32,000 nt of DNA, taken from positions 1 to 32,000 of the forward strand of contig JBHLMI010000014.1 in NCBI GenBank assembly GCA_048938295.1, given 5' to 3'. A model generated the notes under the pieces. It was not told where the DNA came from. It did no database searches and was given only the letters and a program-made list of their open reading frames with translations. The DNA comes from Promethearchaeota archaeon (GTDB lineage Archaea > Asgardarchaeota > Hermodarchaeia > Hermodarchaeales > Hermodarchaeaceae). Positions 1,593-26,289 of this stretch are shown one piece after another (the first letter of the stretch is position 1; each line of letters opens with the position of its first letter). The translations under genes and the position numbers were made by a program.

Positions 1593-4500
1593 ATGAGGTT
1601 GGAGGGTATGTTGAGTAAAAAAAAGGTCTTATCAGGTATAGGAGTGTTTCTCATTGCCAGTTTATGCCTTCCATTGATAATGGCACCAATTCTCTCCGAA
1701 GTAACTTCAAGTACGATTGAGGGAAGCTTTCCTACTATTCCGTCTGATCTTCTTTCTAAGGAATTCGATATTGCGGAACTCAGAGCGAGTGGGAAATATT
1801 TGAATCCAAATGCAGCAAATTGGGTGCCGTTCATTCCTGGTGCACTGCCCGGAACAGCTCCTGATGTCTATGTCCAGTCTTCGGACTATACACGGATTGT
1901 TGTCGCAACCAGGTTTTATGGTATGTGGTCAGGGAATCGAACGATTGGGACTGATGTTTATTCCGTACATGCTATTCCAAGTTGTGGACATTTATCTGAT
2001 GTTGGTTCCCCCGAATTACCTGTCGTTACTAAATTTGTTGAAGTTCCTCCCAATGTTGATGTGACTGTGGAAGTACTCCATCGGGTCACTCGAAGATTTT
2101 CCGGATGCAAAGTTACGCCATTCATCGGTTTCTATCCCAGCGCGACAGGATCTTCAAATACAACTAGCCCCTGGTTCCCACCTCCTTCAAACTTTACTGA
2201 CCCTCCAATTAACTCAACCGTTTATTCTTTCAATCGCTTCATTCCCCTGGACAATGTCTGGTTAAGTGGTGGACTCAAAGCTCATCCCATTTACCTTCGA
2301 GGGCGAAGAATAGTTGGCATAAACATCGTACCCATCCTATTCCACCCACAAAATTCAGAATTAGAAGCTCATTCTTCCCTAACTATTGCTTTGAATTATG
2401 ACAAGCAGGCATCTATTCCGGTTATCGAAGAGCGATTTGTTTCTCGAGTCTTTGAAGAGTTATTCCAATCGTTTCTACTCAATTATCATTCCCGAGCTCG
2501 AAGTTCAGCTTCAGCTCAACTGACCTCATCAAAGATGGCTATGACCGATGAGGGAGTAGATTATCTCATTATTACCGACGAAGCATTTATTGACGAATTA
2601 CAACCACTAATTAGTTGGAAGATGCGAAAAGGGCTTCAGACCCGATGTATTACTGTTCAACAAATCGTCAGAGATGATAACCAGAACCCCGATACGATCA
2701 GCCCCATAGAGAAACGGCGACTAGTTACAGAGTATATTAACGACACCTATTGGGGCGAAACACCTGCCCCAAGTTATGTGCTTTTCGTTGGTGATGACGA
2801 ACATATTGTTCCTCACTATGAATATCAGCACTACGCGGCCGAACATGCAGGTGCATTTGTTGGATCAGACTTAGGCTACTTTACTGTCGACGGCGATGAC
2901 TATATCCCAGATATTCTTTACGGAAGATTTTCAGTTGACACGCCTCAAGAAACCCGAAATCTTGTTAGCAAGACCCTCGATTATGAAAAAGATCCGCCTG
3001 CACGAAGCTCTCATTTCTATGACTACATTACGCCAGTCGCCTATTCATTCATCACAGATCCAGCACGTTCATTTTTCCTTTCGGCAAACAATGTTAGTGA
3101 ACATCTCAGTAATTTTTATGAGATAGATACAGTTTATAGGTCTTTTCCAAACTTTGATGTCGAAGGTACGAAGATAGACATCCGTTCAGCCTTTAATGAC
3201 GGACGGCTCATGATTTATTATGTCGGGCATGGAGCCTCTGAGAATTTTCAAAAATACGTAACTCGTGAAACAATGGATGGTTGGTCTAATCCAATCTTTA
3301 CGACCCGCGATTTCACTGGTTTAGATAACGACGGGATGTATCCTTTAGTAGTTAGCATAGCATGTTGTACAGGATGGTTCGATGGAAACACCGATTGTCT
3401 GGGTGCGAAGCAGGGATTTGAATACCTCTTGGAAGGGGAGTATGAAAGCTTCTGTGAGAATATAACAAGATTAGGTGGAAGTGGGGCGATTGCGGCTATT
3501 GGAGCCACTCGGATGGCAGAGTTTTGGGCTGGTGATGCATTATTTGACGGGATGATAGATTGCATGTGGCCAGATTATCGAGCAGCTTCAGCCTTTGGCG
3601 TCACGCCAACCCTAGGGCAGATGTTGTGGTATGGAAAGATGTTTATGGCTACATATTTGGGATTAGATTCCCGGAGAACTGAAATTACCTATCACATGTA
3701 TCATTTATTTGGTGATCCTGAACTCAAACTGTGGAGAGATGCACCGGGTACACTGACCGTAGAACATCCAGAAGGAATAGGTTCAATGGGAGAACAATCA
3801 TTCTACGTGAAGGTTACCAATGCCTCCTCAGGACAACCAGTTGAATCAGCAACAGTTTCTCTCCAAATGGATGATTTGATCGTTAAATTTGATTCGAATT
3901 CATATGGCTATGCATATTGTTACATTACGCCATCACAATACGGCGGAGTGATGAACATCACCGTAACTCATTCAGATTTCAAACCCTACCTGAACGAAAT
4001 GACCGTAACTCCACATGGTGGATATCTAGAGCTCTCTCTTAATGAAGCAGATGCTAATTATGATCTTACTCTGACAGGCTACGAGTTTGATTATGGTGCA
4101 GTCGATATTGATTTTGGTGGCCATGAATTAAGATGCTATGTTGATGTTGCCACCCAAGGAGAGTTTGTAAATTCATTTGATGTCTTCTCTGGGGTTGAAA
4201 GTCCCGTGAATATTGTTGCAAATCAATTTGGAGGTAACAAGTTAGCAGTAACCCTTTTTGGTCGATTGGATGATCATGCGGATCCGTATATTTATTCTCA
4301 ATGGGATGAAGACACCTGGGCATTGTATTCAGAGTCAAAAAGTGGGCATCCACGGTGGGATAACCCAGATATTGAATTAAGATATCTTCTCCCAGTAGGA
4401 GGGTATGAAGTTCCTCCCGAAACGACACATACTCTTCACGTCACAGTTCACAATAAGGGACATGCAACAGCACGAGGAGTCACCGTTAGCCTGTATGAAG

Positions 4501-5165
4501 GAGAGTGGGGAATAGGACAGCAATCCTGGAGAAGAATCAAGGAATGGATCAATATCCAAATCCCAGGAAAGAGGAGTCACACCCTTTCGACGACTTGGAG
4601 TACCCTAGTTGCCGGTAGTTGGTGTTTCAGAGCTGAAATAAGCTATGACCAGGATGAAAACATTGATAATAACATCGGATTAGAAAACTTGGCAGTTCAA
4701 ACAGTTACTACGCCTGGAACATACCATTTCAAATTTCCATTTTCTATATACAATCCGAATGCAGAGAAAATTAGCTTTGATTCAGTAAACTTGCTGGAGA
4801 GGGAACTGCGTGAAAATCAGCTTGTTCAGATTGAAAGAGAGGCTTCTTATGTATTCAGTCCTCCGCACCTCGAATTAGCAAACTTATCAATAGTAATTCC
4901 AGCTGAAGTTCCATATGGTGAAACTCAAACGTATGTAGTTACTGCAACAAGTGACGGCAGAGTTTATGGAGGTATTGAAGTTATCATCCACAAATTCCCC
5001 ATCGAAATCCCAAGGATATCAGACAAATGGCTTTTAGGTTTCCTCGTCTTACTTATTCTCATAATAATTGTTATTATCCTATCCTATTTTGTGATTCGAA
5101 GTCTAAAGTCAGACAATCAAAGTTCTGATAAACAAAATCAAAATACTGGTACATCTGACCCGTGA
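1593..5165 (+). CDS. Gingipain-like C25 cysteine peptidase: signal/anchor, C25 propeptide, catalytic domain, Ig-like/CARDB domains, C-terminal TM
   Basis: Propeptide GSPELPVVTKFVEVP; YLIITDEAF..LISWKMRKG; YVLFVGD; SDLGY...IPDILYGRF; catalytic His in YVGHG and Cys in SIACCTGWFD; LFGDP; CARDB-like VTVHNKG...DENIDNN; C-terminal WLLGFLVLLILIIIVIILSYFVI. Confidence 0.9.
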   Translation: MRLEGMLSKKKVLSGIGVFLIASLCLPLIMAPILSEVTSSTIEGSFPTIPSDLLSKEFDIAELRASGKYLNPNAANWVPFIPGALPGTAPDVYVQSSDYTRIVVATRFYGMWSGNRTIGTDVYSVHAIPSCGHLSDVGSPELPVVTKFVEVPPNVDVTVEVLHRVTRRFSGCKVTPFIGFYPSATGSSNTTSPWFPPPSNFTDPPINSTVYSFNRFIPLDNVWLSGGLKAHPIYLRGRRIVGINIVPILFHPQNSELEAHSSLTIALNYDKQASIPVIEERFVSRVFEELFQSFLLNYHSRARSSASAQLTSSKMAMTDEGVDYLIITDEAFIDELQPLISWKMRKGLQTRCITVQQIVRDDNQNPDTISPIEKRRLVTEYINDTYWGETPAPSYVLFVGDDEHIVPHYEYQHYAAEHAGAFVGSDLGYFTVDGDDYIPDILYGRFSVDTPQETRNLVSKTLDYEKDPPARSSHFYDYITPVAYSFITDPARSFFLSANNVSEHLSNFYEIDTVYRSFPNFDVEGTKIDIRSAFNDGRLMIYYVGHGASENFQKYVTRETMDGWSNPIFTTRDFTGLDNDGMYPLVVSIACCTGWFDGNTDCLGAKQGFEYLLEGEYESFCENITRLGGSGAIAAIGATRMAEFWAGDALFDGMIDCMWPDYRAASAFGVTPTLGQMLWYGKMFMATYLGLDSRRTEITYHMYHLFGDPELKLWRDAPGTLTVEHPEGIGSMGEQSFYVKVTNASSGQPVESATVSLQMDDLIVKFDSNSYGYAYCYITPSQYGGVMNITVTHSDFKPYLNEMTVTPHGGYLELSLNEADANYDLTLTGYEFDYGAVDIDFGGHELRCYVDVATQGEFVNSFDVFSGVESPVNIVANQFGGNKLAVTLFGRLDDHADPYIYSQWDEDTWALYSESKSGHPRWDNPDIELRYLLPVGGYEVPPETTHTLHVTVHNKGHATARGVTVSLYEGEWGIGQQSWRRIKEWINIQIPGKRSHTLSTTWSTLVAGSWCFRAEISYDQDENIDNNIGLENLAVQTVTTPGTYHFKFPFSIYNPNAEKISFDSVNLLERELRENQLVQIEREASYVFSPPHLELANLSIVIPAEVPYGETQTYVVTATSDGRVYGGIEVIIHKFPIEIPRISDKWLLGFLVLLILIIIVIILSYFVIRSLKSDNQSSDKQNQNTGTSDP

Positions 5166-5375: not shown

Positions 5376-5420
5376 AACACCCATCTGCAAGATTGTCTAG
5401 TGTAGTTTGGTGTGGTGAGA

Positions 5421-6392
5421 ATGGACGAAATTGACAAGCGGCTCATATTCGAACTTCTCGTTGATTATCGGGCTTCATATCAGTCCATGGCAAAGAAACT
5501 GGACTTATCTGTGAATGCGGTGAAAAAACGGTTTGAAAGGTTGAGAAGTGTGGGCATCATTCGTGGTGGGCTTTTAGCGCCTGTGCCTAGTATGATAGGG
5601 AGTGAGGATTGGGTGGCGATTTTACGCATGGAGGGATTGAGTACCTCAGAAGAACAGTTGGCTAGAGTGGGAGCACACCGGTTGGTTCGGGCAGGGAGCA
5701 TTTTAACCGATGGAAGTATCCTATGCTTTGGAATTGTTGGAGGTGCCAAGGACCTTCAGGAGATTGGGAGCTATTTGCGACAGGTTCCTGGAGTAGAATC
5801 CGTAGAATTCCACACTATTTTGAATGAACCAGGAAAGAGGTGTGAGTTGACCATGGCTGATTTGAAAGTCCTTCGCTGTTTACGCCAGGAGCCACGAATT
5901 CCAATCAGTGAGATTGCCCAACTAACTGGGTTGACACCGCGTCGCATCCGGAAAATACTTATAAATTTACTTGGTGAAAACGGTGCTGAGATAACTTTTC
6001 ATTTGAATTGGGAGCCGCGAGGTGTGGCGCATCCCAATGAGGTGTGTTTTCGTCTGAGTGTTTGGTGGAATTTGAATGCCGGCGGATATACAGCATTCAT
6101 TATTAAGATTCGGCATGCAGAAGGTACTGAAGCCCGTAGTCGAATCGTCAATTGGCTGAAATGCACATATCCGTTTAAGTTCTGGTATGCCTATGCGTCG
6201 GCTTTCGAACCTGTGATTTTTTGTATATTCATGGTTGAGCATTTACATGAATCGATTGACATCGCTAGCGCTGTGACACAATTACCGGAAGCGGTTGATG
6301 TGTATCCGATTTTTGGATATCCCACGAAAGTCTTTCGAAGCCAAATAGATGATTATTTTGAAGCACTCTTCAAACAGCTAGAAGCGGAATGA
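5421..6392 (+). CDS. Lrp/AsnC-type transcriptional regulator with two winged HTH domains, paralog 1
   Basis: MDEIDKRLIFEL..YRASYQSMAKKLDLSVNAVKKR (AsnC-type HTH) and a second HTH DLKVLRCLRQEPRIPISEIAQLTGLTPRRIRK. Start taken at ATG 5421 (alternative GTG 5412). Confidence 0.85.
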   Translation: MDEIDKRLIFELLVDYRASYQSMAKKLDLSVNAVKKRFERLRSVGIIRGGLLAPVPSMIGSEDWVAILRMEGLSTSEEQLARVGAHRLVRAGSILTDGSILCFGIVGGAKDLQEIGSYLRQVPGVESVEFHTILNEPGKRCELTMADLKVLRCLRQEPRIPISEIAQLTGLTPRRIRKILINLLGENGAEITFHLNWEPRGVAHPNEVCFRLSVWWNLNAGGYTAFIIKIRHAEGTEARSRIVNWLKCTYPFKFWYAYASAFEPVIFCIFMVEHLHESIDIASAVTQLPEAVDVYPIFGYPTKVFRSQIDDYFEALFKQLEAE

Positions 6393-6520
6393 TGGATCTG
6401 GCCATCTACTATCGAACCTTTTTTCGGTACAACTTCTTCTTTGTGTATATTTCTGGTGATATTCACTCTGAGGTTTGCATTTTTATGTATGGACCTTGTA
6501 GTGAATGTGGATTCGGACAT

Positions 6521-6555
6521 TGAAACGCTGCATGGGTGGTGCAGCGGTGGTTTCA
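6521..6555 (+). promoter_or_regulatory. Conserved leader element, copy 2, with hairpin potential
   Basis: TGAAA-CGCTGCA-TGGGTGG-TGCAGCG-GTGG-TTTCA forms 12 bp around a 7-nt loop with a 4-nt bulge. Ends 47 nt before ATG 6603. Confidence 0.55.
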
Positions 6556-6602
6556 CATCCCTATCAGATCAATGTAAACCAGAGTAGGTAGGTTTGGGAA
6601 GT

Positions 6603-7589
6603 ATGGACGAAATTGACAAGAACATCATCTTCGAGTTATCTGTCAATTATCGTGTCTCATACCAGACGATTGCCAAGAAATACAATCTTTCGGTGAATGC
6701 GGTGAAAAAACGCATTCAGAAACTGAAAAGTGACGGGATTATTCGTGGAGGGTGGTTGTTTCCGATGAATGCTATGCTGGGGATGGAAAATTGGGTGGCA
6801 CTTGTAAGAACGGAGGATCCGATTCCCTCTGATGCTTTCTTAGACGGTCTTGGAGCGCACAGGTCGATTGATTCCGCCAGTATCCTTACAGATGGAAGTA
6901 TTCTCTGCTTCGGACATTATGCTGGTGCCAAAGGTCTTGAAGAACTTGGTACGTTCTTGCGTCAAACTCCAGGCGTTACATCCGTGGACTTTCACACAAT
7001 CCTTGCTGAGCCGGGTAAGCGTCGGGAACTATCCCTATCAGATTTGAAGGTATTACGCTGTTTACGCCAGGATCCCCGAATGTCGATCAGTAATATATCC
7101 CAGAATACTCGACTTACGCCCCGCCGAATCCGAAAAATAATCCAAGAATTGATTGATGATAAGGGCTCTGAACCGGAACTCTATCTAAACTGGAACTCAC
7201 GAGGAGGAAGCCGCCCCGATCAAGTCTCCTTTAAGGTCAGTATAAACTGGAATTTGAATGCTGGAGGCCATACGACTTTTGTCATTATCATCCGCCACGA
7301 AGAAGGCGCAGAATTTCGATCCAAGATCATAAATGTGCTTAAGGAGAAATATCCGTTCAAATTCTGGTATTCGTATGCTTCAGCCTTTGAACCGGTTATT
7401 TTCTGTGTCTTTGTAGTGGAGCACATGCGCGAAGCAGGAGACATTATTGAGACATTACGACAAACCCCTGAGATCCTCTCAGCGAATGCGATTTATGGAT
7501 ACCCGAGTCGACGGTATCACAGTGTTGTTGATGAGTATTTTGAAGAACTCTTCAAACGCCTAGAGGACTATGTAAAAAAGGCGGATTAA
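6603..7589 (+). CDS. Lrp/AsnC-type double-wHTH transcriptional regulator, paralog 2
   Basis: Colinear with paralog 1: 36/50 identical in the first 50 aa, identical LSVNAVKKR helix, shared WNLNAGG and YASAFEPVIFC. Start ATG 6603 (alternative TTG 6594). Confidence 0.85.
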   Translation: MDEIDKNIIFELSVNYRVSYQTIAKKYNLSVNAVKKRIQKLKSDGIIRGGWLFPMNAMLGMENWVALVRTEDPIPSDAFLDGLGAHRSIDSASILTDGSILCFGHYAGAKGLEELGTFLRQTPGVTSVDFHTILAEPGKRRELSLSDLKVLRCLRQDPRMSISNISQNTRLTPRRIRKIIQELIDDKGSEPELYLNWNSRGGSRPDQVSFKVSINWNLNAGGHTTFVIIIRHEEGAEFRSKIINVLKEKYPFKFWYSYASAFEPVIFCVFVVEHMREAGDIIETLRQTPEILSANAIYGYPSRRYHSVVDEYFEELFKRLEDYVKKAD

Positions 7590-17047: not shown

Positions 17048-17605
17048 CTAGTCCATCTTATCGGTAAATAGGATCCGGAAGACACACTGGGGATCACCCT
17101 GTAAGCGTCCTGCGATTTGTGTAACTCGAGCGACATAGGGGATTTTGAGGTTATCAATCCAATGTTGTAAGAGTCCTTCCAGCATACCTGAAACTATCTC
17201 ACAGTAGCGTAAATCCATTTCCGCCTCAAAGGTGTCTTGCGAGCAGATGGGACACGATTCTGTGCGAAGAAGCAGTGTTCGATCATCTGTGAATTCTAAT
17301 GAATCAGGAGGTTTTCCGGTTGCCAGTTTCCAATTACGTCCGAGATACTCGTCGACTCTATTTAGGAAAAGATCTGGTGAATTAGGGAAGAAGCCTTCCT
17401 GCGGTTCACCATATCGGCTGACGAGTCCTAGGAGGAGTGGAGTTGTCATAGTCTTTCCAAGGGAATGAAGGGCAGCCTCAATGGCGGTGGGATTTCCGGC
17501 ATGTTCAACGGATAAGGCTTCAACTAGACGCAGATAGAAGATAGGCATTAGTGGACCGGAGAAGAGGGGGGGTTTATGTTCGGGAGTAGTTTCATTAGGT
17601 GTCAT
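17048..17605 (-). CDS. V4R (4-vinyl reductase) domain protein
   Basis: LHSLGKTM...; SCPIC; RYCEIVSGMLEGLL; GDPQCVFRI; SD GAGGA. Confidence 0.75.
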   Translation of the reverse strand: MTPNETTPEHKPPLFSGPLMPIFYLRLVEALSVEHAGNPTAIEAALHSLGKTMTTPLLLGLVSRYGEPQEGFFPNSPDLFLNRVDEYLGRNWKLATGKPPDSLEFTDDRTLLLRTESCPICSQDTFEAEMDLRYCEIVSGMLEGLLQHWIDNLKIPYVARVTQIAGRLQGDPQCVFRILFTDKMD

Positions 17606-17643
17606 ACCGTTTTCCTCTGGATAGTTGGATTTAGTTCCTCCTT

Positions 17644-18888
17644 TCAGTCATCGTCAGCAGATTCTTCTTCAGCAGATTCTTCTTTAGCTGGTTTGCCCGT
17701 AATAGCAGCTTTCACTTTCTCCTTGCGAGAAACCTTTGCAGGAGCTCGTTCACGTAGCTGTCTTTCGGCTTCAGCCAGAGAGCCCATGGGAATTGTTGAA
17801 GGTAATGTGGGTGCTTGTCCCGTTAATTGAGCGATTTCAACTGATTTCTCAGCCCAAAGTACTTGTGCGGGGTGAACTCCAGCTACACGCCAATAGAAGA
17901 AACGATCCCACAATTTTTCTTCAATAGATAAAACGCCAGCGGAAAGTGAAACGAGGTTCAAGCCAAGCCGGTTAAAAGCCTTGGCCACAATTTTGCGTAC
18001 TTCATCACGGATTTCGGCTTCATCACGTAGTGCGCTCATGAAATCGTGTTCTGAGAACTTATCGCGCATCACATTATCAATAAGCGTTTTAAGATACTCG
18101 ACGAGTTCTTGGGAGTTCATTGGAATTCTTTGTTCATGAAGTGTGGAAATCAGTTCCCGGGCATCTTCTACATCAAAGGCGAAGAGCAACCCATAAGGTT
18201 CTTGGAGGCGAATTGACCGATTGAACACGGTCCTAGCTTCTTTACCTTCTCCAGTTGTCACCGGAACATCAAATTCTTCGCGACGCCAAGATTTTCCAGT
18301 CCAAGTAAGTCGAGCTAAATCAGAAGTCTGAGTTACGCCAGTATTGGCATATACATGAACCCGACCCGTATAGATGTAGACAATATTGGCTTTGAACCCT
18401 TGACCCCGCCATCCAGTTTTAATTAAAGGTGAGGGAAATGTTTCAATGGAATAGGGTGTCTCACTGGGTTCCCAGACTTCGTATACTTTAAACTCTCGAC
18501 TACCATCGTTGAATTCCTCTCCATACGCACAACATAGCCAGTCTGGAGGAACGTAGACCTTCGCGTCTTTTTCGAGGATTTCGATTTGTTCCATGTCTCG
18601 TTCCAAATCTGGCGGATGGTAGATGAACTGGGGGAGACGGGCATCCGATTCTTGGATTTCGGTTCCCGAGGGGAGTTTTCGAACAATGGTGTTTCCTGTT
18701 GTGAACCCACCAAAGGCTGCAAGCCTGGTCAGACGCCGTATTGCCCGGATTGCTTGGGCACCCCGATCCTTGTGAGGGGCTTGAATCATTTGCGTCCAAT
18801 AATTTTGACTACCCAAATCTCCGATTGGAATACTGGGATGAGGACCCAGTTGTGGGTCCGGTGCCATTAAACAGATGGTTTTTGCCAC
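17644..18888 (-). CDS. SPFH/band-7 domain protein of the soluble YdjI-like type
   Basis: AKVYVPPDW...TFPSPLIKTGWRGQGFKANIVYIY resembles YdjI-type FKAEVYFV. The SPFH core ends EIRDEVRKIVAKAFNRLGLNLVSLS. No TM helix; GTG start with SD AGGAGG; acidic tail. Confidence 0.6.
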   Translation of the reverse strand: MAKTICLMAPDPQLGPHPSIPIGDLGSQNYWTQMIQAPHKDRGAQAIRAIRRLTRLAAFGGFTTGNTIVRKLPSGTEIQESDARLPQFIYHPPDLERDMEQIEILEKDAKVYVPPDWLCCAYGEEFNDGSREFKVYEVWEPSETPYSIETFPSPLIKTGWRGQGFKANIVYIYTGRVHVYANTGVTQTSDLARLTWTGKSWRREEFDVPVTTGEGKEARTVFNRSIRLQEPYGLLFAFDVEDARELISTLHEQRIPMNSQELVEYLKTLIDNVMRDKFSEHDFMSALRDEAEIRDEVRKIVAKAFNRLGLNLVSLSAGVLSIEEKLWDRFFYWRVAGVHPAQVLWAEKSVEIAQLTGQAPTLPSTIPMGSLAEAERQLRERAPAKVSRKEKVKAAITGKPAKEESAEEESADDD

Positions 18889-18950
18889 GATGAAAGCCTC
18901 CTTCTAATATTTGCGAATACTTCTAGCTTCAAATAACTATTGGTGGATGG

Positions 18951-19805
18951 TTAAAACCCAGTTATTTCATAGCGGTCACCAAGCCGCTCTGCCTTTGCCT
19001 CTTCTTTGCTCCGCCATTCTTCAATGAATTGCTGCATCTTCTGTTGGATTGCTAAATTGCCTGATTGGGCAATCCAATCCATTGAGATATGGACATGATC
19101 TTCTCGCAGCACGATGGTACGGGCTACCGCATCATAATAGCCTCCCTGCCCTTTCGTCCCAAGGTACGATACAAACATGGTGAATAATTTCTGCGCCTTG
19201 TTGTTATAACTTTGAAGCATGCTTTCGGGAACAAGGGGGATTTGTCTGATGATGCGTTTTCCGATGAGATCGTAGATGGCAATTTCTTTGGTCTTTTCGT
19301 GTTTGACCCCACTTTCAAGGAGCGTATAGAAGTCTATGGGCCCGGTAAAACAGCTCTTAAAGAACTCATGGCTTGTACGTTGAAAATCAAGGAGTTCGCC
19401 TGTAGCTTTGACATAAACAATCTCTTGAACACCATCGGAACGTTCCACTGCCAAGTTGATGTGTTTTTTCCATTTGGTATAACCTTGGGGATTTTCCTGC
19501 AGTTCAGGAAGAAATATGAGGGGTACATTGAAGAAGACCTTGCTATGTTTTAGGGCCTTTTCTAGCTCTCCCTTGTATGGTTCAGTAGGTGAGAGCCCTT
19601 CAACTTCTGCTACAAATGCGGCGCGATAGCTTGTTAATATAAAATGGCCATCCTGCCCCTTCACCATAAGGGGGTCGGTCCCAGCCCGAACGCCCTTAGC
19701 GATTTTGGCTTTAGCCACCAAGAGCAAGGTTTCGTCAGCCTTGGGGAGGATGCTCTTGGCGATGGTCAGTTTTTCGGTTGGTTCAAGTTCCCAAGTCAAT
19801 GCCAT
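18951..19805 (-). CDS. Hypothetical protein with an N-terminal PH/GRAM-like domain
   Basis: DETLLLVAK...DGHFILTSYRAAFV...FNVPLIFLPEL fits the PH-superfamily G-x-h-x-LT-x-x-R-h-h-F ... hPL pattern. ATG 19805 after AGGAAGG. Confidence 0.6.
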   Translation of the reverse strand: MALTWELEPTEKLTIAKSILPKADETLLLVAKAKIAKGVRAGTDPLMVKGQDGHFILTSYRAAFVAEVEGLSPTEPYKGELEKALKHSKVFFNVPLIFLPELQENPQGYTKWKKHINLAVERSDGVQEIVYVKATGELLDFQRTSHEFFKSCFTGPIDFYTLLESGVKHEKTKEIAIYDLIGKRIIRQIPLVPESMLQSYNNKAQKLFTMFVSYLGTKGQGGYYDAVARTIVLREDHVHISMDWIAQSGNLAIQQKMQQFIEEWRSKEEAKAERLGDRYEITGF

Positions 19806-19849
19806 TGACCTTCCTGTTTTCAATCTATTATAGAATCTGGATTATTTGA

Positions 19850-22000
19850 TTATTGTCCTAGAAAACGGGTGGCGAATTCAGTAAACTGCGCCATGGTTTC
19901 CTTGGTGATGCTGGGTTTTGTGGCTGTGATGGCTTCTTGGAAGTGTGACATACTTACACGTGACGCTTCCAAGTTCTTGCGTAAAACTGCAAGAACTGCC
20001 TTTCGACACACATTCTGGATATCTGCACCCGAATAGCCTTCTGTAACTGAGGCAAGTTGATCGAGTCTTACATCATCGGCAAGAGGCATATTGCGAGTGT
20101 GAACAGCGAAAATAGCCTGTCGAGTCATCTGATTGGGAGGAGGAGTAAAGATGAAGATATCAAATCGACCAGGTCGTAGCAGAGCAATATCAATCATATC
20201 CGGACGGTTGGTGGCAGCTAACACTACAACGCTTTCAAGTGCTTCCATGCCATCCATTTCGACTAAGAGTTGGTTTACAATCCGTTCGCTTACACGGCTA
20301 TCGTATCCTGATCCTCGGCGTGGAGCAATATTGTCGAGTTCATCGATGAAGAGAACAGAAGGAGCGGCTTGGCGGGCACGGCGGAAGATTTCAGCGATGA
20401 TTTTTTCGGATTCACCAACCCATTTACTCATTACTTCAGCGCCACGAATACTGATGAAATTCGCCTGGCTTTCCGTAGCAACAGCTTTTGCTAGAAGAGT
20501 TTTTCCGGTGCCAGGGGGACCAAAGAGAAGAACCCCTGTGGGTGGTGTGATGTTGAACCGGGAAAAGATATCAGGTCGACTGATTGGCAATTCGACGGCT
20601 TCGTGAAGGGCCTGTTTAGCTTGTTCCATTCCACCAATATCATCCCAACGAACCATAGGGATTTCAACGGCAATTTCCCGTAAGGCGGATGGTTCGACAA
20701 CCTGCCGGGCCGTTTTGAAATCAGTTGCATTGACCACAATCTGGTTAATCATCTCAGGGGGAACTTGCATGTGCTGCTCTTCGATTTTTGGCAGCACACG
20801 GCGTAAAGCACTCAGAGCAGCTTCCTTGACCAAGAAGGCTAAGTCAGAACCCACAAACCCATGGGTTCCTTGAGCGATTTGGTGTAGATCCACGGAATCA
20901 TCCAAGGGAACACCCCGTGTATGGACACGAAGGATATCATACCGACCAAGTGCGTCAGGTACGGAGATATAGATTTCACGATCAAACCGTCCTGGGCGTC
21001 GAAGGGCTGGGTCAACTGCATCCAACCGGTTGGTTGCTGCGAGGACATAGACTTGGTCTCGGTCTTGGAGCCCATCCATGAGGGTCAGAAGCTGGGCAAC
21101 GATACGACTTTCCATGCCTCCTGATTCGCGTCTCGCAGCAATAGCATCGATTTCGTCAATGAAGATGATGGCCGGTTTGTTTTTCTCGGCTTCTTGAAAG
21201 GCGTCTCGAAGAAACTTTTCTGATTCACCATAATATTGGCTGACGATTTCCGGACCATTTATGGCACGGAAGAAGGCTTCGCTTTCTGTCGCAACAGTTT
21301 TTGCTAGAAGAGTTTTTCCACATCCCGGCGGTCCGTGCAGGAGCACACCGTGTGGTGGTTGAATTTTGAGTCGGGCAAAAAGTTCCGGATGGCGAATAGG
21401 CAGCTCGACGATTTCACGGATTCGTGCTATTGCGTCGTCTAACCCGCCAACATCATCGTATGTGGCTGTGGCTATCGGGGGAGTTTCTTCAGGGGCAGTT
21501 TTTTGGAGCTGAATATCAGTGTTGGTTTGGACTATCACGTTGCCGGATGGAACTGTTTTCGCCACATAGAACTTTGCTTCGCCCAGAGCAAACGCTGTAC
21601 GCCCCACTGCAATGATGATATCCTTCTTAATGGGTTTGTTAAGCAAATTTGATCTCAGTAAAGAGGTAGCAAGTTCTTGTCGGTATTCAATTTCTTCGCC
21701 TTTGAGCGGTGTTAAAACAATACTACGGGCCGGTTGCGCCTCTACGCCATGAAGGGTAACGATATCCCCGATACGAACACCTGCATTCAATCGAGTCAAT
21801 CCGTCCATTTTAATAACATTTTGACCATGAAGAGTAGAATCACGTACGGCTAGTGCCGAGACACTTTTCTTCCCCACAATTTCAAGCAACACTCCATCTG
21901 CTAGTTGTAGTTGGTCTAATACTGCTGGATCAACTCGAACTGTGAAGCGCCCAACGTCCACCGCACTCGCTTCAATCACACGCACTGATGCTACACTCAT
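19850..22000 (-). CDS. cdc48: CDC48/VCP (p97) family AAA+ ATPase
   Basis: N-domain ([15 protein letters not shown]); D1 [24 protein letters not shown]; D2 [21 protein letters not shown]. Start ATG 22000 after GGGTG; the ORF track start at 22141 overlaps the divergent gene. Confidence 0.93.
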
Positions 22001-22088
22001 GGCTATACACCCACTATGACTCAACAGATGGGGACTCGTTATTACCCTCGCGAGTAGGATATTTAACTCCGGCGCCTGATAGGAGAAT

Positions 22089-22979
22089 ATGGGTCGAATA
22101 GCTATGACGTCCCCAAAGCCACCTACTATCCATTTTGACACGGGTCATAATGAGGAGCTTGCTCTCGATGAACCAGAATTAACCGAGTTGGTGCGCTTAC
22201 TCAAACTTAACGGGATGCAACCGGTATCTTTGACCACACCCCTTACACCCGAAGCCCTTACAAAATGTAAGGTTGTGGTACTAGGAAATCCTTTGGATTC
22301 TCTATTTACTTCAGATGAAGTTTCGGCTCTCGTTTCCTTTGTAGAAGCCGGTGGAGGACTCCTCATAGTAAGTGGTGCAACGATTTTTGGGAAAGGAGGG
22401 GATGTCGCACGAAAGACAAATCTCAATAAACTCGCAAAGCATTTTCAATTTGAGTTTGCAACCAAAGCCCTTGCACAGCCAGCAGATATTTCCGATGAGG
22501 TGATCAAGGCCGTTCCTGCACACGATCACCCTATACTAGCTGGGATTGGGCCGCTATTCCTGGCATCAGGAGTCAGCCTGCTTTCAGAAGATACAAAAAC
22601 CCATCTTTTCCGAGCTGCAAATATTCCAGGTTCACCAACTGTTGCCATTATCACCGAGAAGAAGGAAGGACGCGTAATTGCCTTCGGTGGTGGAACTTTC
22701 TTCTTCAACGATTATATCCAGTTAAGTAACCATGAACGCCTTCTTGTCCAGATTTTCCGATGGCTCTCAGGCGCCCCTTTGAGCCTCCCACTCCAAGGGC
22801 TTTCTCCCCCACGAATCATCCTAGATGAAGCATCTGCTACGGAAGTCATCGCTGATTTAAGACGGCAACTGGATAAAATAGAGACAGAACTGTCCAGCCT
22901 CAAAGAAGTTATTAATTCCAGCGTCAAGGAAATGGAAAAACTCGTGCGTCAATTTCAAGACGAAGAAAAGGAGACCTAG
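22089..22979 (+). CDS. GldG/IFT52 (GIFT)/DUF4350-like domain protein with a C-terminal coiled coil
   Basis: IHFDTGHNE...VVVLGNPLDSLFTSDEVSALVSFVEAGGGLLIV...NLNKLAKHF; coiled coil LRRQLDKIETELSSLKEVI. Alternative start ATG 22104. Confidence 0.65.
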   Translation: MGRIAMTSPKPPTIHFDTGHNEELALDEPELTELVRLLKLNGMQPVSLTTPLTPEALTKCKVVVLGNPLDSLFTSDEVSALVSFVEAGGGLLIVSGATIFGKGGDVARKTNLNKLAKHFQFEFATKALAQPADISDEVIKAVPAHDHPILAGIGPLFLASGVSLLSEDTKTHLFRAANIPGSPTVAIITEKKEGRVIAFGGGTFFFNDYIQLSNHERLLVQIFRWLSGAPLSLPLQGLSPPRIILDEASATEVIADLRRQLDKIETELSSLKEVINSSVKEMEKLVRQFQDEEKET

Positions 22980-23638
22980 TCTTTTGGGGTAACTAGCTGT
23001 TCAATTCGTAAATGGCGTTCTAACTGTACGGCTTGAAGGTGCTGTAGTCTAAAGTAGTCTAGCATCACCCGGAATACGGGTTGTTGGAGTTCTTTGGCAA
23101 TATCTTCAATTGACCGGTTTCCGTCAATGGCTTCGAGGAAGGGATGCAATTCCTCGGGTGCTTGACTCTTGGGAACAGTATGAATACGGATCGGAATATA
23201 TCGTTCTGAAACCGCATAAGGTCGAAACAGCAGATCGATTTGTGGTGCAATATCACGAAAGTGGCTTAAATCACCTAGCCAGTTCTCTAATAGCTCGCCA
23301 TGTTGGCGCTCCATGATGTTAATCAGGGTCCGCATACGATCACGGATGGCAGGTAGGTCATCAGTGGAGAAGACTGCAACATAGATGTTTTTTCCATATT
23401 CTAAAAGGATTTTAACATCTTCACGGTCAATAACACGGAGGCGCCCATCTTCACGTTCAAGAGTCCGTAATTTTTGTCCATTCTCGGAAATACGACCAAC
23501 CAAGTCAGAAAGAAACATACTTATCGCTGAGAGAAATCCAGTGACTAAATCAGGCTCCATGTTTTCGATTTGGAAGTCCTTTTGGAGTAACGTTCGTCCA
23601 TCTCGATAGACAACATAGAGACTATACAGTTGGGCCAT
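22976..23638 (-). CDS. Longin-like domain plus C-terminal winged helix (NPRL2-like architecture)
   Basis: LYSLYVVYRDGRTLL...EPDLVTGFLSAISMF (Asgard-type longin) followed by YIPI...FLEAIDGNRSIEDIAKEL (wHTH). Confidence 0.7.
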   Translation of the reverse strand: MAQLYSLYVVYRDGRTLLQKDFQIENMEPDLVTGFLSAISMFLSDLVGRISENGQKLRTLEREDGRLRVIDREDVKILLEYGKNIYVAVFSTDDLPAIRDRMRTLINIMERQHGELLENWLGDLSHFRDIAPQIDLLFRPYAVSERYIPIRIHTVPKSQAPEELHPFLEAIDGNRSIEDIAKELQQPVFRVMLDYFRLQHLQAVQLERHLRIEQLVTPKD

Positions 23639-23700
23639 CTGAACTCAACCTTAAATGATAGTTCACTGAAGACGCGAAGAGAGAAAAGCTTTCCGAGACC

Positions 23701-26289
23701 TCATCGAACCCGTTGTGCAATCCGATGGATTTCGCTGATAATTTCACTTGGTGAAGTGAGTTCAGCGCCTAGATAGGTACGTCCCTGGGTGATATAAGCC
23801 ATGTAGAAGCCTAAGAATGGTATTAGCTTGTCTTCTTTGATTCCCACTTCAATGAGATTTGGCGTATTCAGTTCTTGACCGCGTTTACGAGCCCAATCAA
23901 GAATTACCTCATGATGCTTTTTCCGTCTTATTTGGAAAAACTCATGGTGGAGATTGATAGTGACAAGAGGGATTCGATCATTATGCAGTAGGTGACACTG
24001 ATGGAGCACATCAGCGATCGCTTCAGGCAACCCGATATCCGGAGTATCGGAATTTGTCAATTGAATATTGGGCAGGAAATCACTAAAAACCACTACAATT
24101 GGTAAGACATTGGAGTTTCGACGGCGTTCACGTTTAATGGTTTCATGAGCTCGTTTTATTCCCGCAGCTAAGGGGGTATATCCAGAGAGCCGAAGTGACA
24201 TCAGCTTGGCAACCAACCGCGTCCAATTCGTAGTGGGTGCTTGTACTTCCACTGCACCCCAGTCTTTGAGGGCAATGAGTCCAACCCGATCTCGTGTACC
24301 TTCTAAACAATTCTTGAATGCAATCAAGGAGAGCTGAAGTTTATCAAAGCTGCGGAGCATGGAAACACTCAGGTCCACCACAAAAATGATGGTCAGTGGA
24401 GTCCAGCTCTGAAATCGTTTTTCCCGAACATCGGGAGGCTGGATGCGAATCCTGGGCTTTTCCCGAAGTGAAGGATCAGTATGAAGGGCAGCGACTTTAA
24501 TGGTGGCAGGAATATGAATATTCCGAGGAGAGCCTTGAGGAAGCCCGGAGCCAAGGAGCACTCCACCTTCAGTTTCTCGGGATTGCAGAGACCCGGCGCG
24601 TCGTCCAACCTGGCGAATTGACCATTTGGGTGCCCGTTGTCGACCAAAATACCGAGGCTCAAGTAAATCTTCTAAGTCAAAGAGCGGTTTCCCTTCATCC
24701 ATTCGAATTAAAGAAGAGGTGACCGATGGTGAACGTGAACTAGAGGGTTGAGGGGAGGATTTCGCTGCCTTGGGTGGGGTGGAACTCACGGCAGCAGGAC
24801 CAGTTGAATCGCCCTCATGTTTCGCTTGACGATACTTTCCTGTGGTGTCAGGAGGTTGGCTGCCTGAGGCTAGGGCAGGCATCACAGATCCAGGGCGTTT
24901 ATGATATCGGTAAATACGTTCCAGTGCAAGGACCAATCCAGCAGCAACTACTCCACCGATAACGAAGTTGATGGGCCAGGGAATCGGCATAAGGAGGCCG
25001 ATGGCTGCAGCGACGACCATATAAAAACATACAAACCCAGTGTACGAACAGCGTCCCCCAGGACCGCGCCTAGGCGGTGTTCCGAAAAAACGCTCACCAT
25101 CATGACTACTATCCAAAGGATGGTGTTGCTTGAATTTGCTGGTAAGTTTTTGATATTCATCCTTCGTATAAGGTGCTTTATCTTTGGCTTGGGGATTTTG
25201 CGTTTTCGTCTTTTTTCGCGCTTCTTTCATTGCATCTTGAATGTCATTGCGATTAGGAGGTTCGAGAATACCACGCTGGCGAGTGCGATGACTGAGCGCA
25301 AGAGACGCTACGATTTCCACATCTTCAGCTGTGACAGCTGTCCGTCCATCAAATGCAGCAAAGGCCATGGCAGTCTTCGCAATCACAATATCAGGACGAG
25401 CTCCATCAACTTGTAGTCGAGTGGTTAACTGGGCGATGACCTGCATGACTTCATCCGAAATCTCCACCATCTTCATCTTTTCTCGAGCCGCAATGATTTC
25501 AGCTTGGAGTTTCTCTTCTTTTTCAGCCCATTTTTTATGGAGCTCTTGAGGATTTCTTTCAAATTCAATATTTAACCGGATGATTTCAACACGTTCTTCT
25601 GGAGAAAAGGGGCGTTGGATCGCAACGTGAAGGGGGAATCGATCCAACAATTGAGGACGTAGTTCTCCTTCTTCCGGGTTCATAGATCCTACAAAGATAA
25701 AGCGAGCCGGATGACTGACCGAGATGCCTTCTCGTTCAACAACATTGACACCAGTTGCTGCAGCATCAAGAAGTGCGTCCACGATGTGGTCAGGGAGAAG
25801 ATTAACTTCGTCTACATAGAGGATATTTTGGTTCGCATCAGCAAGAATTCCAGGTTTTAGGGCCGCTTCCCCTTCCCGAATAGCCCGCTCCACATCCAAA
25901 CTTCCGACTACACGGTCTTCGGTAGCACTTAGCGGGAGATTGACGACACGCATTTTTTGCATTTGTGTGTTCAGTTTCTTATTCTTTGCAAGTTTTGCCA
26001 TACAGGTGCCACACAGTCCAGTGGGGTCATCAGGATCGCAACGGAACTGGCAATCGGTTACGACAGGAATTTCAGGTAAGAGCGCAGCGAGAGAACGAAC
26101 AACGGTAGTTTTTCCTGTACCCTTCGGACCTGTAATGAGAAGGCCCCCAATGTGAGGATTAATAGCATTGAGTAGAAGAGCGAGTTTTAGTTCGTCGTGA
26201 TTAACGAATGCCGTGAAGGGGAGAACACGGCGTGTGGTTTTACTCGCTTCTGGTGCCAACCTGAGGACCTCTACCTCCCCTGCCCTCAT
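23701..26289 (-). CDS. ChlI-type AAA+ / vWA (ChlD-like chelatase subunit) fusion with an internal TM hairpin
   Basis: LPFTAFVNH.ELKLALLLNAINP, GPKGTGKT, LYVDEVNLL, SMNPEEGELRPQLLDRF; MIDAS VVDLSVSM, SGYTPLAAG, VFSDF; hydrophobic hairpin at about 24919-25050. Start uncertain (TTG 26259 possible). Confidence 0.85.
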   Translation of the reverse strand: MRAGEVEVLRLAPEASKTTRRVLPFTAFVNHDELKLALLLNAINPHIGGLLITGPKGTGKTTVVRSLAALLPEIPVVTDCQFRCDPDDPTGLCGTCMAKLAKNKKLNTQMQKMRVVNLPLSATEDRVVGSLDVERAIREGEAALKPGILADANQNILYVDEVNLLPDHIVDALLDAAATGVNVVEREGISVSHPARFIFVGSMNPEEGELRPQLLDRFPLHVAIQRPFSPEERVEIIRLNIEFERNPQELHKKWAEKEEKLQAEIIAAREKMKMVEISDEVMQVIAQLTTRLQVDGARPDIVIAKTAMAFAAFDGRTAVTAEDVEIVASLALSHRTRQRGILEPPNRNDIQDAMKEARKKTKTQNPQAKDKAPYTKDEYQKLTSKFKQHHPLDSSHDGERFFGTPPRRGPGGRCSYTGFVCFYMVVAAAIGLLMPIPWPINFVIGGVVAAGLVLALERIYRYHKRPGSVMPALASGSQPPDTTGKYRQAKHEGDSTGPAAVSSTPPKAAKSSPQPSSSRSPSVTSSLIRMDEGKPLFDLEDLLEPRYFGRQRAPKWSIRQVGRRAGSLQSRETEGGVLLGSGLPQGSPRNIHIPATIKVAALHTDPSLREKPRIRIQPPDVREKRFQSWTPLTIIFVVDLSVSMLRSFDKLQLSLIAFKNCLEGTRDRVGLIALKDWGAVEVQAPTTNWTRLVAKLMSLRLSGYTPLAAGIKRAHETIKRERRRNSNVLPIVVVFSDFLPNIQLTNSDTPDIGLPEAIADVLHQCHLLHNDRIPLVTINLHHEFFQIRRKKHHEVILDWARKRGQELNTPNLIEVGIKEDKLIPFLGFYMAYITQGRTYLGAELTSPSEIISEIHRIAQRVR

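Follow-up and report, generated by a model that had tools for sequence, protein, structure and literature searches.

Gene content of the locus

In the window (the whole 32,000-nucleotide stretch of DNA that was analyzed), a minus-strand gene encodes P0001, a protein made of a longin domain and a single winged helix (wH). It belongs to a six-gene block at 17048-23638 (TRAPPC3-like, SPFH, PH-like, Cdc48, GIFT, and longin-wH) that is confined to one Hermodarchaeota genus. The genes of the block, the signals upstream of the P0001 gene and the gene beyond them are:

17048..17605, minus strand: TRAPPC3/V4R-like protein (best PDB matches Thorarchaeota TRAPPC3, E = 0.005; Pfam TRAPP 0.0017, below cutoff)
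17644..18888, minus strand: SPFH/Band 7 protein (Pfam 2.8e-6)
18951..19823, minus strand: PH/GRAM-like protein, a lead only (Atlas score 0.89)
19850..22141, minus strand: extra Cdc48/p97-type AAA+ paralogue (true start probably downstream of the listed GTG)
22089..22979, plus strand: GIFT-domain protein with a C-terminal coiled coil (Pfam IFT52_GIFT 1.8e-11)
22976..23638, minus strand: P0001 gene, 220 aa, longin plus single wH (open reading frame with ATG start)
23645-23651, minus strand: Shine-Dalgarno-like AGGTTGA upstream of the P0001 gene (read by eye)
23684-23692, minus strand: promoter-like box AAAGCTTTT upstream of the P0001 gene (read by eye)
23701-26289, minus strand: conserved ChlI/D-like AAA+/vWA fusion that contains an internal hydrophobic hairpin (present in both genera of the family)

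Elsewhere in the window lie two tandem paralogous double HTH/Lrp-like regulators of 326 and 331 aa (5412-7589) and a 1190-aa secreted gingipain/C25-like protein with, by eye, a C-terminal membrane anchor (1593-5165).

The P0001 open reading frame is a real gene under purifying selection and not a chance occurrence, since it has 50 homologues (56 to 89% identity), is present as one copy per genome in 15/15 genomes of one Hermodarchaeota genus, and shows a dN/dS of 0.03 to 0.10 over its longin part (where synonymous sites were unsaturated). Most of the named records among the homologues come from Hermodarchaeota, Ca. Hermodarchaeum yapensis among them; searches of 4 sister-genus genomes (80 to 83% complete) and of other Asgard families turned up no orthologue. 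The GIFT and P0001 genes are convergent and their stop codons share one CTAG at 22976-22979 (4-bp overlap), a tight junction that is seen again at several orthologous loci. The upstream signals of the P0001 gene (23645..23692) also recur at several orthologous loci and suggest that the gene has its own promoter and ribosome-binding site. A 6-bp inverted repeat (TGAACT ... AGTTCA, 14-bp spacer, 23640-23665) lies just 5' of the start codon and is probably not meaningful, as it is present in the closest relative only.

Gene order across the region (AOR, TRAPPC3-like, SPFH, PH-like, Cdc48, GIFT, longin-wH, chelatase-like AAA+/vWA) was identical in 4/4 long loci of the genus, and the stretch from TRAPPC3-like to AAA+/vWA was also found in three contigs carrying 56 to 61% identical orthologues, which end before AOR; block order is therefore the same in each of the 7 long loci that were compared, with orthologue identity as low as 56%. 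In the sister genus, AOR and AAA+/vWA genes abut in 3 genomes, and a search of 4 genomes (80 to 83% complete) recovered none of the five block genes tested. Because these flanks abut without the block genes, positions 17048-23638 appear to have been gained or lost as a unit; its GC content (0.469, versus 0.458 for the genome) does not indicate horizontal transfer. The SPFH gene is present in 15/15 genomes of the genus (81 to 95% identical across it), and a full-length orthologue was not found in 250 other Asgard genomes. Functional coupling of the block is a lead only, because the pattern reflects a single event and the P0001 gene apparently has its own promoter. An obligatory operon link of P0001 with the upstream AAA+/vWA gene is unlikely, since that gene persists in the sister genus, where P0001 was not found, and the promoter-like box lies between the two. 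The genome encodes about 29 small GTPases, 9 of them above the Gtr1_RagA cutoff, and several sit beside other longins. No GTPase gene adjoins the P0001 gene; Asgard GTPases usually lie outside the operons of their longins (PMC10933270).

Domain anatomy of P0001

The AlphaFold model of P0001, built from a 54-row alignment (pLDDT 82, pTM 0.64), comprises a canonical longin (residues 3-141) followed by a strand-helix-helix-helix-strand winged helix (142-215), and the wH predicted alone reached a pLDDT of 93. An earlier note on this DNA had read a longin followed by a wH from short motifs; these are present in the protein (DLVTGFLSAISMF at residues 30-42, RYIPI at 146-150, and IDGNRSI at 171-177), and fold searches of both domains bear out the architecture. 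The features discussed below are:

23216..23632, minus strand: longin domain, residues 3-141, Fuzzy/TRAPP/Sec22-like (fold searches and conservation)
23594..23602, minus strand: beta1-beta2 turn D13-G14-R15 (GAP-type longins have G-P at the same site; PMC12290439)
23417..23470, minus strand: genus-specific insertion, an apparent tandem duplication of 9 residues in the beta3 segment (57-65 / 66-74)
23381..23401, minus strand: tight turn between beta4 and beta5, residues 80-86, with no conserved Arg
22994..23215, minus strand: one wH repeat with its leading beta strand, residues 142-215, equivalent to NPRL2 170-245

Among orthologues, conservation of P0001 peaks in alpha1 (mean identity of 94%) and in beta3-beta5 (92%), with means of 55% for the wH and 50% for its recognition helix. 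This helix is hydrophobic and averages 0.5 basic residues, and the net charge of the wH across orthologues ranges from -6 to +1 (mean about -2). Arginines R15, R49, R68, and R72 are invariant. We infer that the genus-specific insertion (residues 50-65) arose by duplication of the beta3 segment, the two copies being 57-65 and 66-74; pLDDT is low at 56-63, and E63-D64-G65-R66 is nearly invariant.

Relationship to NPRL2

The link between P0001 and the GATOR1 subunit NPRL2, which acts in nutrient signaling in eukaryotes, is transitive, because P0001 and its close orthologues alone miss NPRL2 by sequence: it was reached neither by phmmer with P0001 nor by the orthologue profile or an orthologue wH-only profile. 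A match to Pfam NPR2, on which the earlier note had proposed to check the resemblance, was absent (PF06218 did not match P0001, 38 orthologues, or the genome). Profiles of the wider family do arrive there without any eukaryotic seed. The two-domain family profile matches NPRL2 168-244 in the PDB (E = 4e-4), and the wH family profile matches human NPRL2 170-245 (E = 3e-6) and yeast Npr2 253-317 (E = 2.8e-5) over nearly its whole length; these two are its best natural PDB matches, followed by PqqD and FAM91A1 at about 3e-3. The top two raw PDB matches of the wH profile, designed-looking repeat proteins whose weak repeats had been summed, were set aside. HMMER aligns the family pattern P...IDG.R.I..I to NPRL2 170-245, which confirms the similar NPRL2 pattern given in the earlier note. 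A profile of the longer family members matches NPRL2 170-365 as its best PDB hit (E = 1.2e-5), with the proviso that one of its seeds (P0153) already had a weak NPR2 match. Pfam NPR2 was above cutoff in 0/251 Asgard genomes, and 5/9 of the sub-threshold matches in this set fall on longin-wH proteins, within the wH.

Structural comparison points the same way by a narrower margin. The top three Foldseek matches of the whole model were GATOR1/SEA chains (E = 3-5e-5), and the wH alone also ranked GATOR1/SEA chains first (E = 0.015-0.037, TM 0.58-0.65). With VIA-align, the wH scored Z = 8.0 against 8fw5_C (NPRL3 by elimination), 7.7 against Npr2, and 7.2 against the bacterial HTH_47 protein 3k9t, followed by MarR, ArsR, and TFE domains at Z = 5.5-6.6. 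The resemblance was to be given up if the wH matched generic HTH families equally well and the structure did not superpose on NPRL2. On the former count the family profile favors NPRL2 by a factor of about 1000 over the next natural match in a single stretch, whereas structure does so only marginally (Z of 8.0/7.7 versus 7.2). On the latter, the domains of the whole chain align in order with those of GATOR1 chains but at a TM of only 0.28-0.35 and an rmsd of 15 Å, the predicted interdomain angle being uncertain (pTM 0.64). Common ancestry of the P0001-type wH and the first wH of NPRL2/Npr2 is probable, if by modest margins, and that part of the claimed resemblance is supported; the longin is of another type.

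P0001 is a shortened, distant relative of NPRL2. It shares its domain order and an alignable first wH with NPRL2/Npr2 (the catalytic subunit of GATOR1/SEACIT) and with NPRL3/Npr3, but differs from NPRL2 in having one wH, no GP motif or arginine finger, another longin subtype, and domains that, as modeled, do not superpose together; it is like NPRL3 only in being without GP. NPRL2 and NPRL3 carry two or more wH repeats (PMC3747258). The wH domains of HTH_47, PqqD-RRE, and FAM91A1 have a DG-x-x-(S/T)-x-x-E-I motif region in common with the P0001 family, but they are not joined to a longin and their sequence match is shorter and weaker than that of NPRL2. The architecture itself was already known in Asgard archaea: Liu et al. 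(bioRxiv 10.1101/2020.10.19.343400) described NPRL2-like proteins with a longin and an NPRL2-type C-terminal domain, which occur in most Thor genomes and in some from Loki, and the longins listed for Ca. L. ossiferum include NPRL2-like ones. Compared with the proteins of Liu et al., the P0001 group is found in Hermodarchaeota and combines one wH with a longin lacking GP.

Longin subtype and absence of GAP motifs

In the model, the longin of P0001 is nearer to those of Fuzzy, TRAPP, Sec22, and Mon1 than to that of NPRL2. VIA-align superposed it on Fuzzy with Z = 14.1 (rmsd 2.3 Å, 122 residues), then on Sec22 (13.0), TRAPP (12.8), and Mon1 (12.4), and NPRL2 chains were not among the best 50 matches, an absence that does not exclude a match further down. 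The first longin of Fuzzy/Mon1/Hps1, TRAPP Bet5/Trs23, and Sec22/VAMP7 are the best structural matches of residues 3-141 overall (Z of 12-14, rmsd 2.3-3.1 Å); unlike P0001 they have no wH, and identity to P0001 is ≤18%. P0001 relatives also give weak Sybindin and Fuz_longin_1 matches. The longin GEF platforms (TRAPP, Mon1-Ccz1, and Fuzzy-Inturned) are of the same longin subtype, and their counterpart alpha1 face is conserved in P0001; GEF activity in these longins needs a specific heterodimer. The domain had been called an Asgard-type longin: the longin fold stands, but the type is not exclusive to Asgard archaea, as a shape search (Atlas) also finds proteins from bacteria and Thermoplasmatota (TM 0.54-0.56).

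The beta4-beta5 loop of the longin is where we take R78 of NPRL2 to lie. R78 is the arginine finger of NPRL2 (PMC8534245), and GAP-type longins have a GP motif ahead of beta2 with a neighboring arginine finger (PMC12290439). Neither feature is found in P0001: none of the 54 rows of the P0001 family alignment has the GP motif, P0001 having D13-G14-R15 instead, and a tight beta4-beta5 turn stands where Asgard GP-type longins have a long R-G hairpin. Asgard longins with both motifs (alignment A5: G19/P and R87-G88) served as the positive control, and against them the GAP-type regulator envisaged in the earlier note is not borne out; at the arginine-finger position that it had singled out for checking, P0001 has no conserved Arg. 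The control longins match Pfam Folliculin (9/30, best 5e-6), have no profile similarity to the P0001 family (hhalign 0.2%), and did not turn up when this genome was searched with profile A5; their profile reached neither NPRL2 nor FLCN in the PDB. By these profile comparisons, the catalytic GP/Arg longins form an Asgard family separate from that of P0001. The Asgard FLCN/SMCR8-type longins (PMC12290439) resemble P0001 in their longin fold and as candidate small-GTPase regulators, but they have the GP motif, the R-G hairpin, and the Folliculin match, of which P0001 lacks GP and hairpin. P0001 may still be a regulator of small GTPases.

Candidates for GAP activity occur elsewhere. About 70 GP-longin open reading frames were checked for NPRL2-type repeats in a search that was not exhaustive, and only single-wH forms were found, in one family (f15; L142, L181, and L182). 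One of these (L142:237-947; genomes G056 and G071) is a 236-aa GP/Arg-type longin plus single wH, the latter resembling generic ArsR/TrmB domains, and proteins of this type are a better candidate for a minimal GAP than P0001. In family f9, a large group of GP/Arg-type longins (L034:1-858 = P0206, and L101-L130) is fused to a Rab-like GTPase, with a GP-longin match in 45/45 genomes; at L034 the fusion gene is divergent from an adjoining longin-wH gene. In the genome studied here (G000), two genes (C22:19610-20509 and C50:18651-19568) have a GP-containing longin-like start, a short beta4-beta5 turn, and an adjacent small GTPase gene.

A family of longins with one to three winged helices

A search of 1.8 billion representatives with the P0001 profile gave 809 matches, most of which share the longin only, in many cases as the end part of a large protein. 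Some 25 span both domains, with 1-3 wH repeats and, in some, extra domains such as V4R; 27 family representatives were two-domain or wH-covering. Relatives of 340-370 aa have three wH repeats, whereas P0001 ends after the first, and hhalign relates the P0001 orthologues to the forms with 2-3 repeats at 99.9% over 216 columns (longin plus first wH). The long-form profile matches 117/121 Asgard genomes, partly via the longin alone. By sequence, P0001 is one short paralogue within a large Asgard family of longins with 1-3 wH, whose wH repeats and the C-terminal half of NPRL2/NPRL3 probably have a common ancestor. It had been proposed as a prokaryotic precursor of the NPRL2/3 architecture, a suggestion that the comparison does not support: the gene is restricted to one genus, and longer Asgard relatives match all of the NPRL2 tail. 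Because these three-wH relatives fit NPRL2 better, P0001 is a short paralogue and neither a demonstrated precursor nor a GAP. For a genus-restricted, one-repeat protein without GP, a short or derived paralogue is a simpler reading than a precursor.

Besides many other longins, this genome encodes three additional longin-wH paralogues (C65:6028-7296, C51:14580-15230, and C38:66639-67331). The C65 paralogue has a roadblock insert and more wH repeats and sits ahead of a MinD/ParA-like gene; 1.5 kb separate the C38 paralogue from a small GTPase. The P0001-type wH is mobile and is joined elsewhere in the genome to a zinc-ribbon-like domain, in a gene (C2:8576-9634; L006) directly upstream of a TRAPP/V4R-like gene. 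In family f6 (L073-L075, L077, L080, L081, L083-L088, and L090-L092), tandem paralogous longin plus wH genes of about 275-300 aa each are conserved, at least one with two wH and neither with GP, flanked by a radical-SAM-like gene and another conserved gene; the tandem pair is a candidate NPRL2/NPRL3-like heterodimer. The large surface-type proteins P0080, P0097, P0100, and P0111 end in the same longin (plus wH-like) module, which follows a transmembrane helix in P0097 and is a possible cytoplasmic signaling tail.

Proposed function and alternative explanations

P0001 is probably a noncatalytic, protein-binding adaptor that combines a longin dimer with docking through its acidic wH. A scaffold is the most likely role, rather than an ancestral enzyme for switching off GTPases, because the catalytic motifs of NPRL2 are missing and NPRL2-like proteins of Asgard archaea are already known. 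The longin would pair with a second longin (its own copy or a paralogue) via beta2/alpha1, offering its near-invariant, small-residue alpha1 face to the partner as in the longin dimers of TRAPP, Mon1-Ccz1, and Fuzzy-Inturned; longin dimers act as GTPase platforms (PMC3747258). The acidic wH would dock on another protein and not bind DNA, much as the TINI region of NPRL2 binds DEPDC5 (PMC8534245). The partner could be a small GTPase, one of the roughly 29 whose genes lie at other loci of the genome, or could come from the block itself (the TRAPPC3-like protein, the Cdc48 paralogue, or SPFH), and P0001 would have no intrinsic arginine-finger GAP activity. We infer the dimerization, the partner, and the activity; a homodimer prediction (median score 0.38, mark 0.42) weighs neither for nor against pairing. 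One or more of the invariant arginines (R15, R49, R68, and R72) could be catalytic from some other position, a point against the adaptor reading.

A specific version of the adaptor model makes P0001 the dedicated subunit of a six-gene membrane module, in which the longin and the TRAPPC3-like protein would pair, as in TRAPP, on an SPFH/PH-like membrane scaffold that the extra Cdc48 remodels. We regard this as rather unlikely, even with the identical order in 7/7 long loci, the longin and SPFH genes in 15/15 genus genomes, and a search of 4 sister-genus genomes that found none of the five tested genes, the flanks abutting in 3 of them. Further support comes from a relative (P0061) that fuses longin, wH, and V4R, from the second TRAPP/V4R-like gene of the genome, which adjoins the same type of wH, from the match of the block V4R protein to Thorarchaeota TRAPPC3, and from a published longin-TRAPPC3 fusion in Heimdallarchaeia (PMC10933270). 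The block nevertheless represents one gain or loss and not independent co-occurrence, its flanking genes are just as syntenic within the genus, the sister genomes are incomplete, and the P0001 gene is cut off from the four-gene run by an opposite-strand gene. In its fullest form, a self-contained Hermodarchaeal module forming a TRAPP-like platform on an archaeal membrane, with docking by an NPRL2-type wH and P0001 as the longin subunit, the idea is unlikely.

It is quite unlikely that P0001 is a one-component transcription regulator, with a longin that senses or dimerizes, a DNA-binding wH, and a merely generic likeness to NPRL2. Single-member Pfam matches are indeed mostly to generic HTH domains (HTH_47 18/41, TrmB 6/41, NPR2 3/41), and MarR, ArsR, and TFE follow in the structural ranking; against this, composition and conservation describe an acidic wH with a hydrophobic, poorly conserved recognition helix nearly devoid of basic residues. 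The nearest matches (NPRL2/3, HTH_47, PqqD/RRE, and FAM91A1) are, moreover, wH domains that mostly bind proteins. Least of all do we expect P0001 to be a minimal proto-NPRL2 acting as a GAP on a Rag/Arf-like GTPase, a very doubtful reading. GATOR1/SEA chains lead the whole-model search, the wH ranks NPRL2/Npr2 first, and the genome is rich in small GTPases, including the 9 Rag-like ones; yet P0001 has neither GP motif nor Arg hairpin, the Asgard longins that do are distinct and gave no match in this genome with profile A5, GEF, SNARE, and adaptin longins are a better structural fit to its own longin, and a single NPRL2-type repeat is encoded by a genus-restricted gene.

Implications

Unseeded profile and structure searches support the presence of relatives of the NPRL2/3 wH tail in a widespread Asgard family. 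At the same time, a longin-wH architecture does not imply GAP chemistry, which cautions against labeling such proteins proto-GATOR1. The P0001 gene is a lineage-restricted short paralogue whose added value lies in its conserved block, from which candidate partners can be named; such cases are rare, since most Asgard longins and GTPases are not linked (PMC10933270). Should the six-gene module be real, it would provide a prokaryotic longin-TRAPPC3 pair whose genes lie together and which could be reconstituted.
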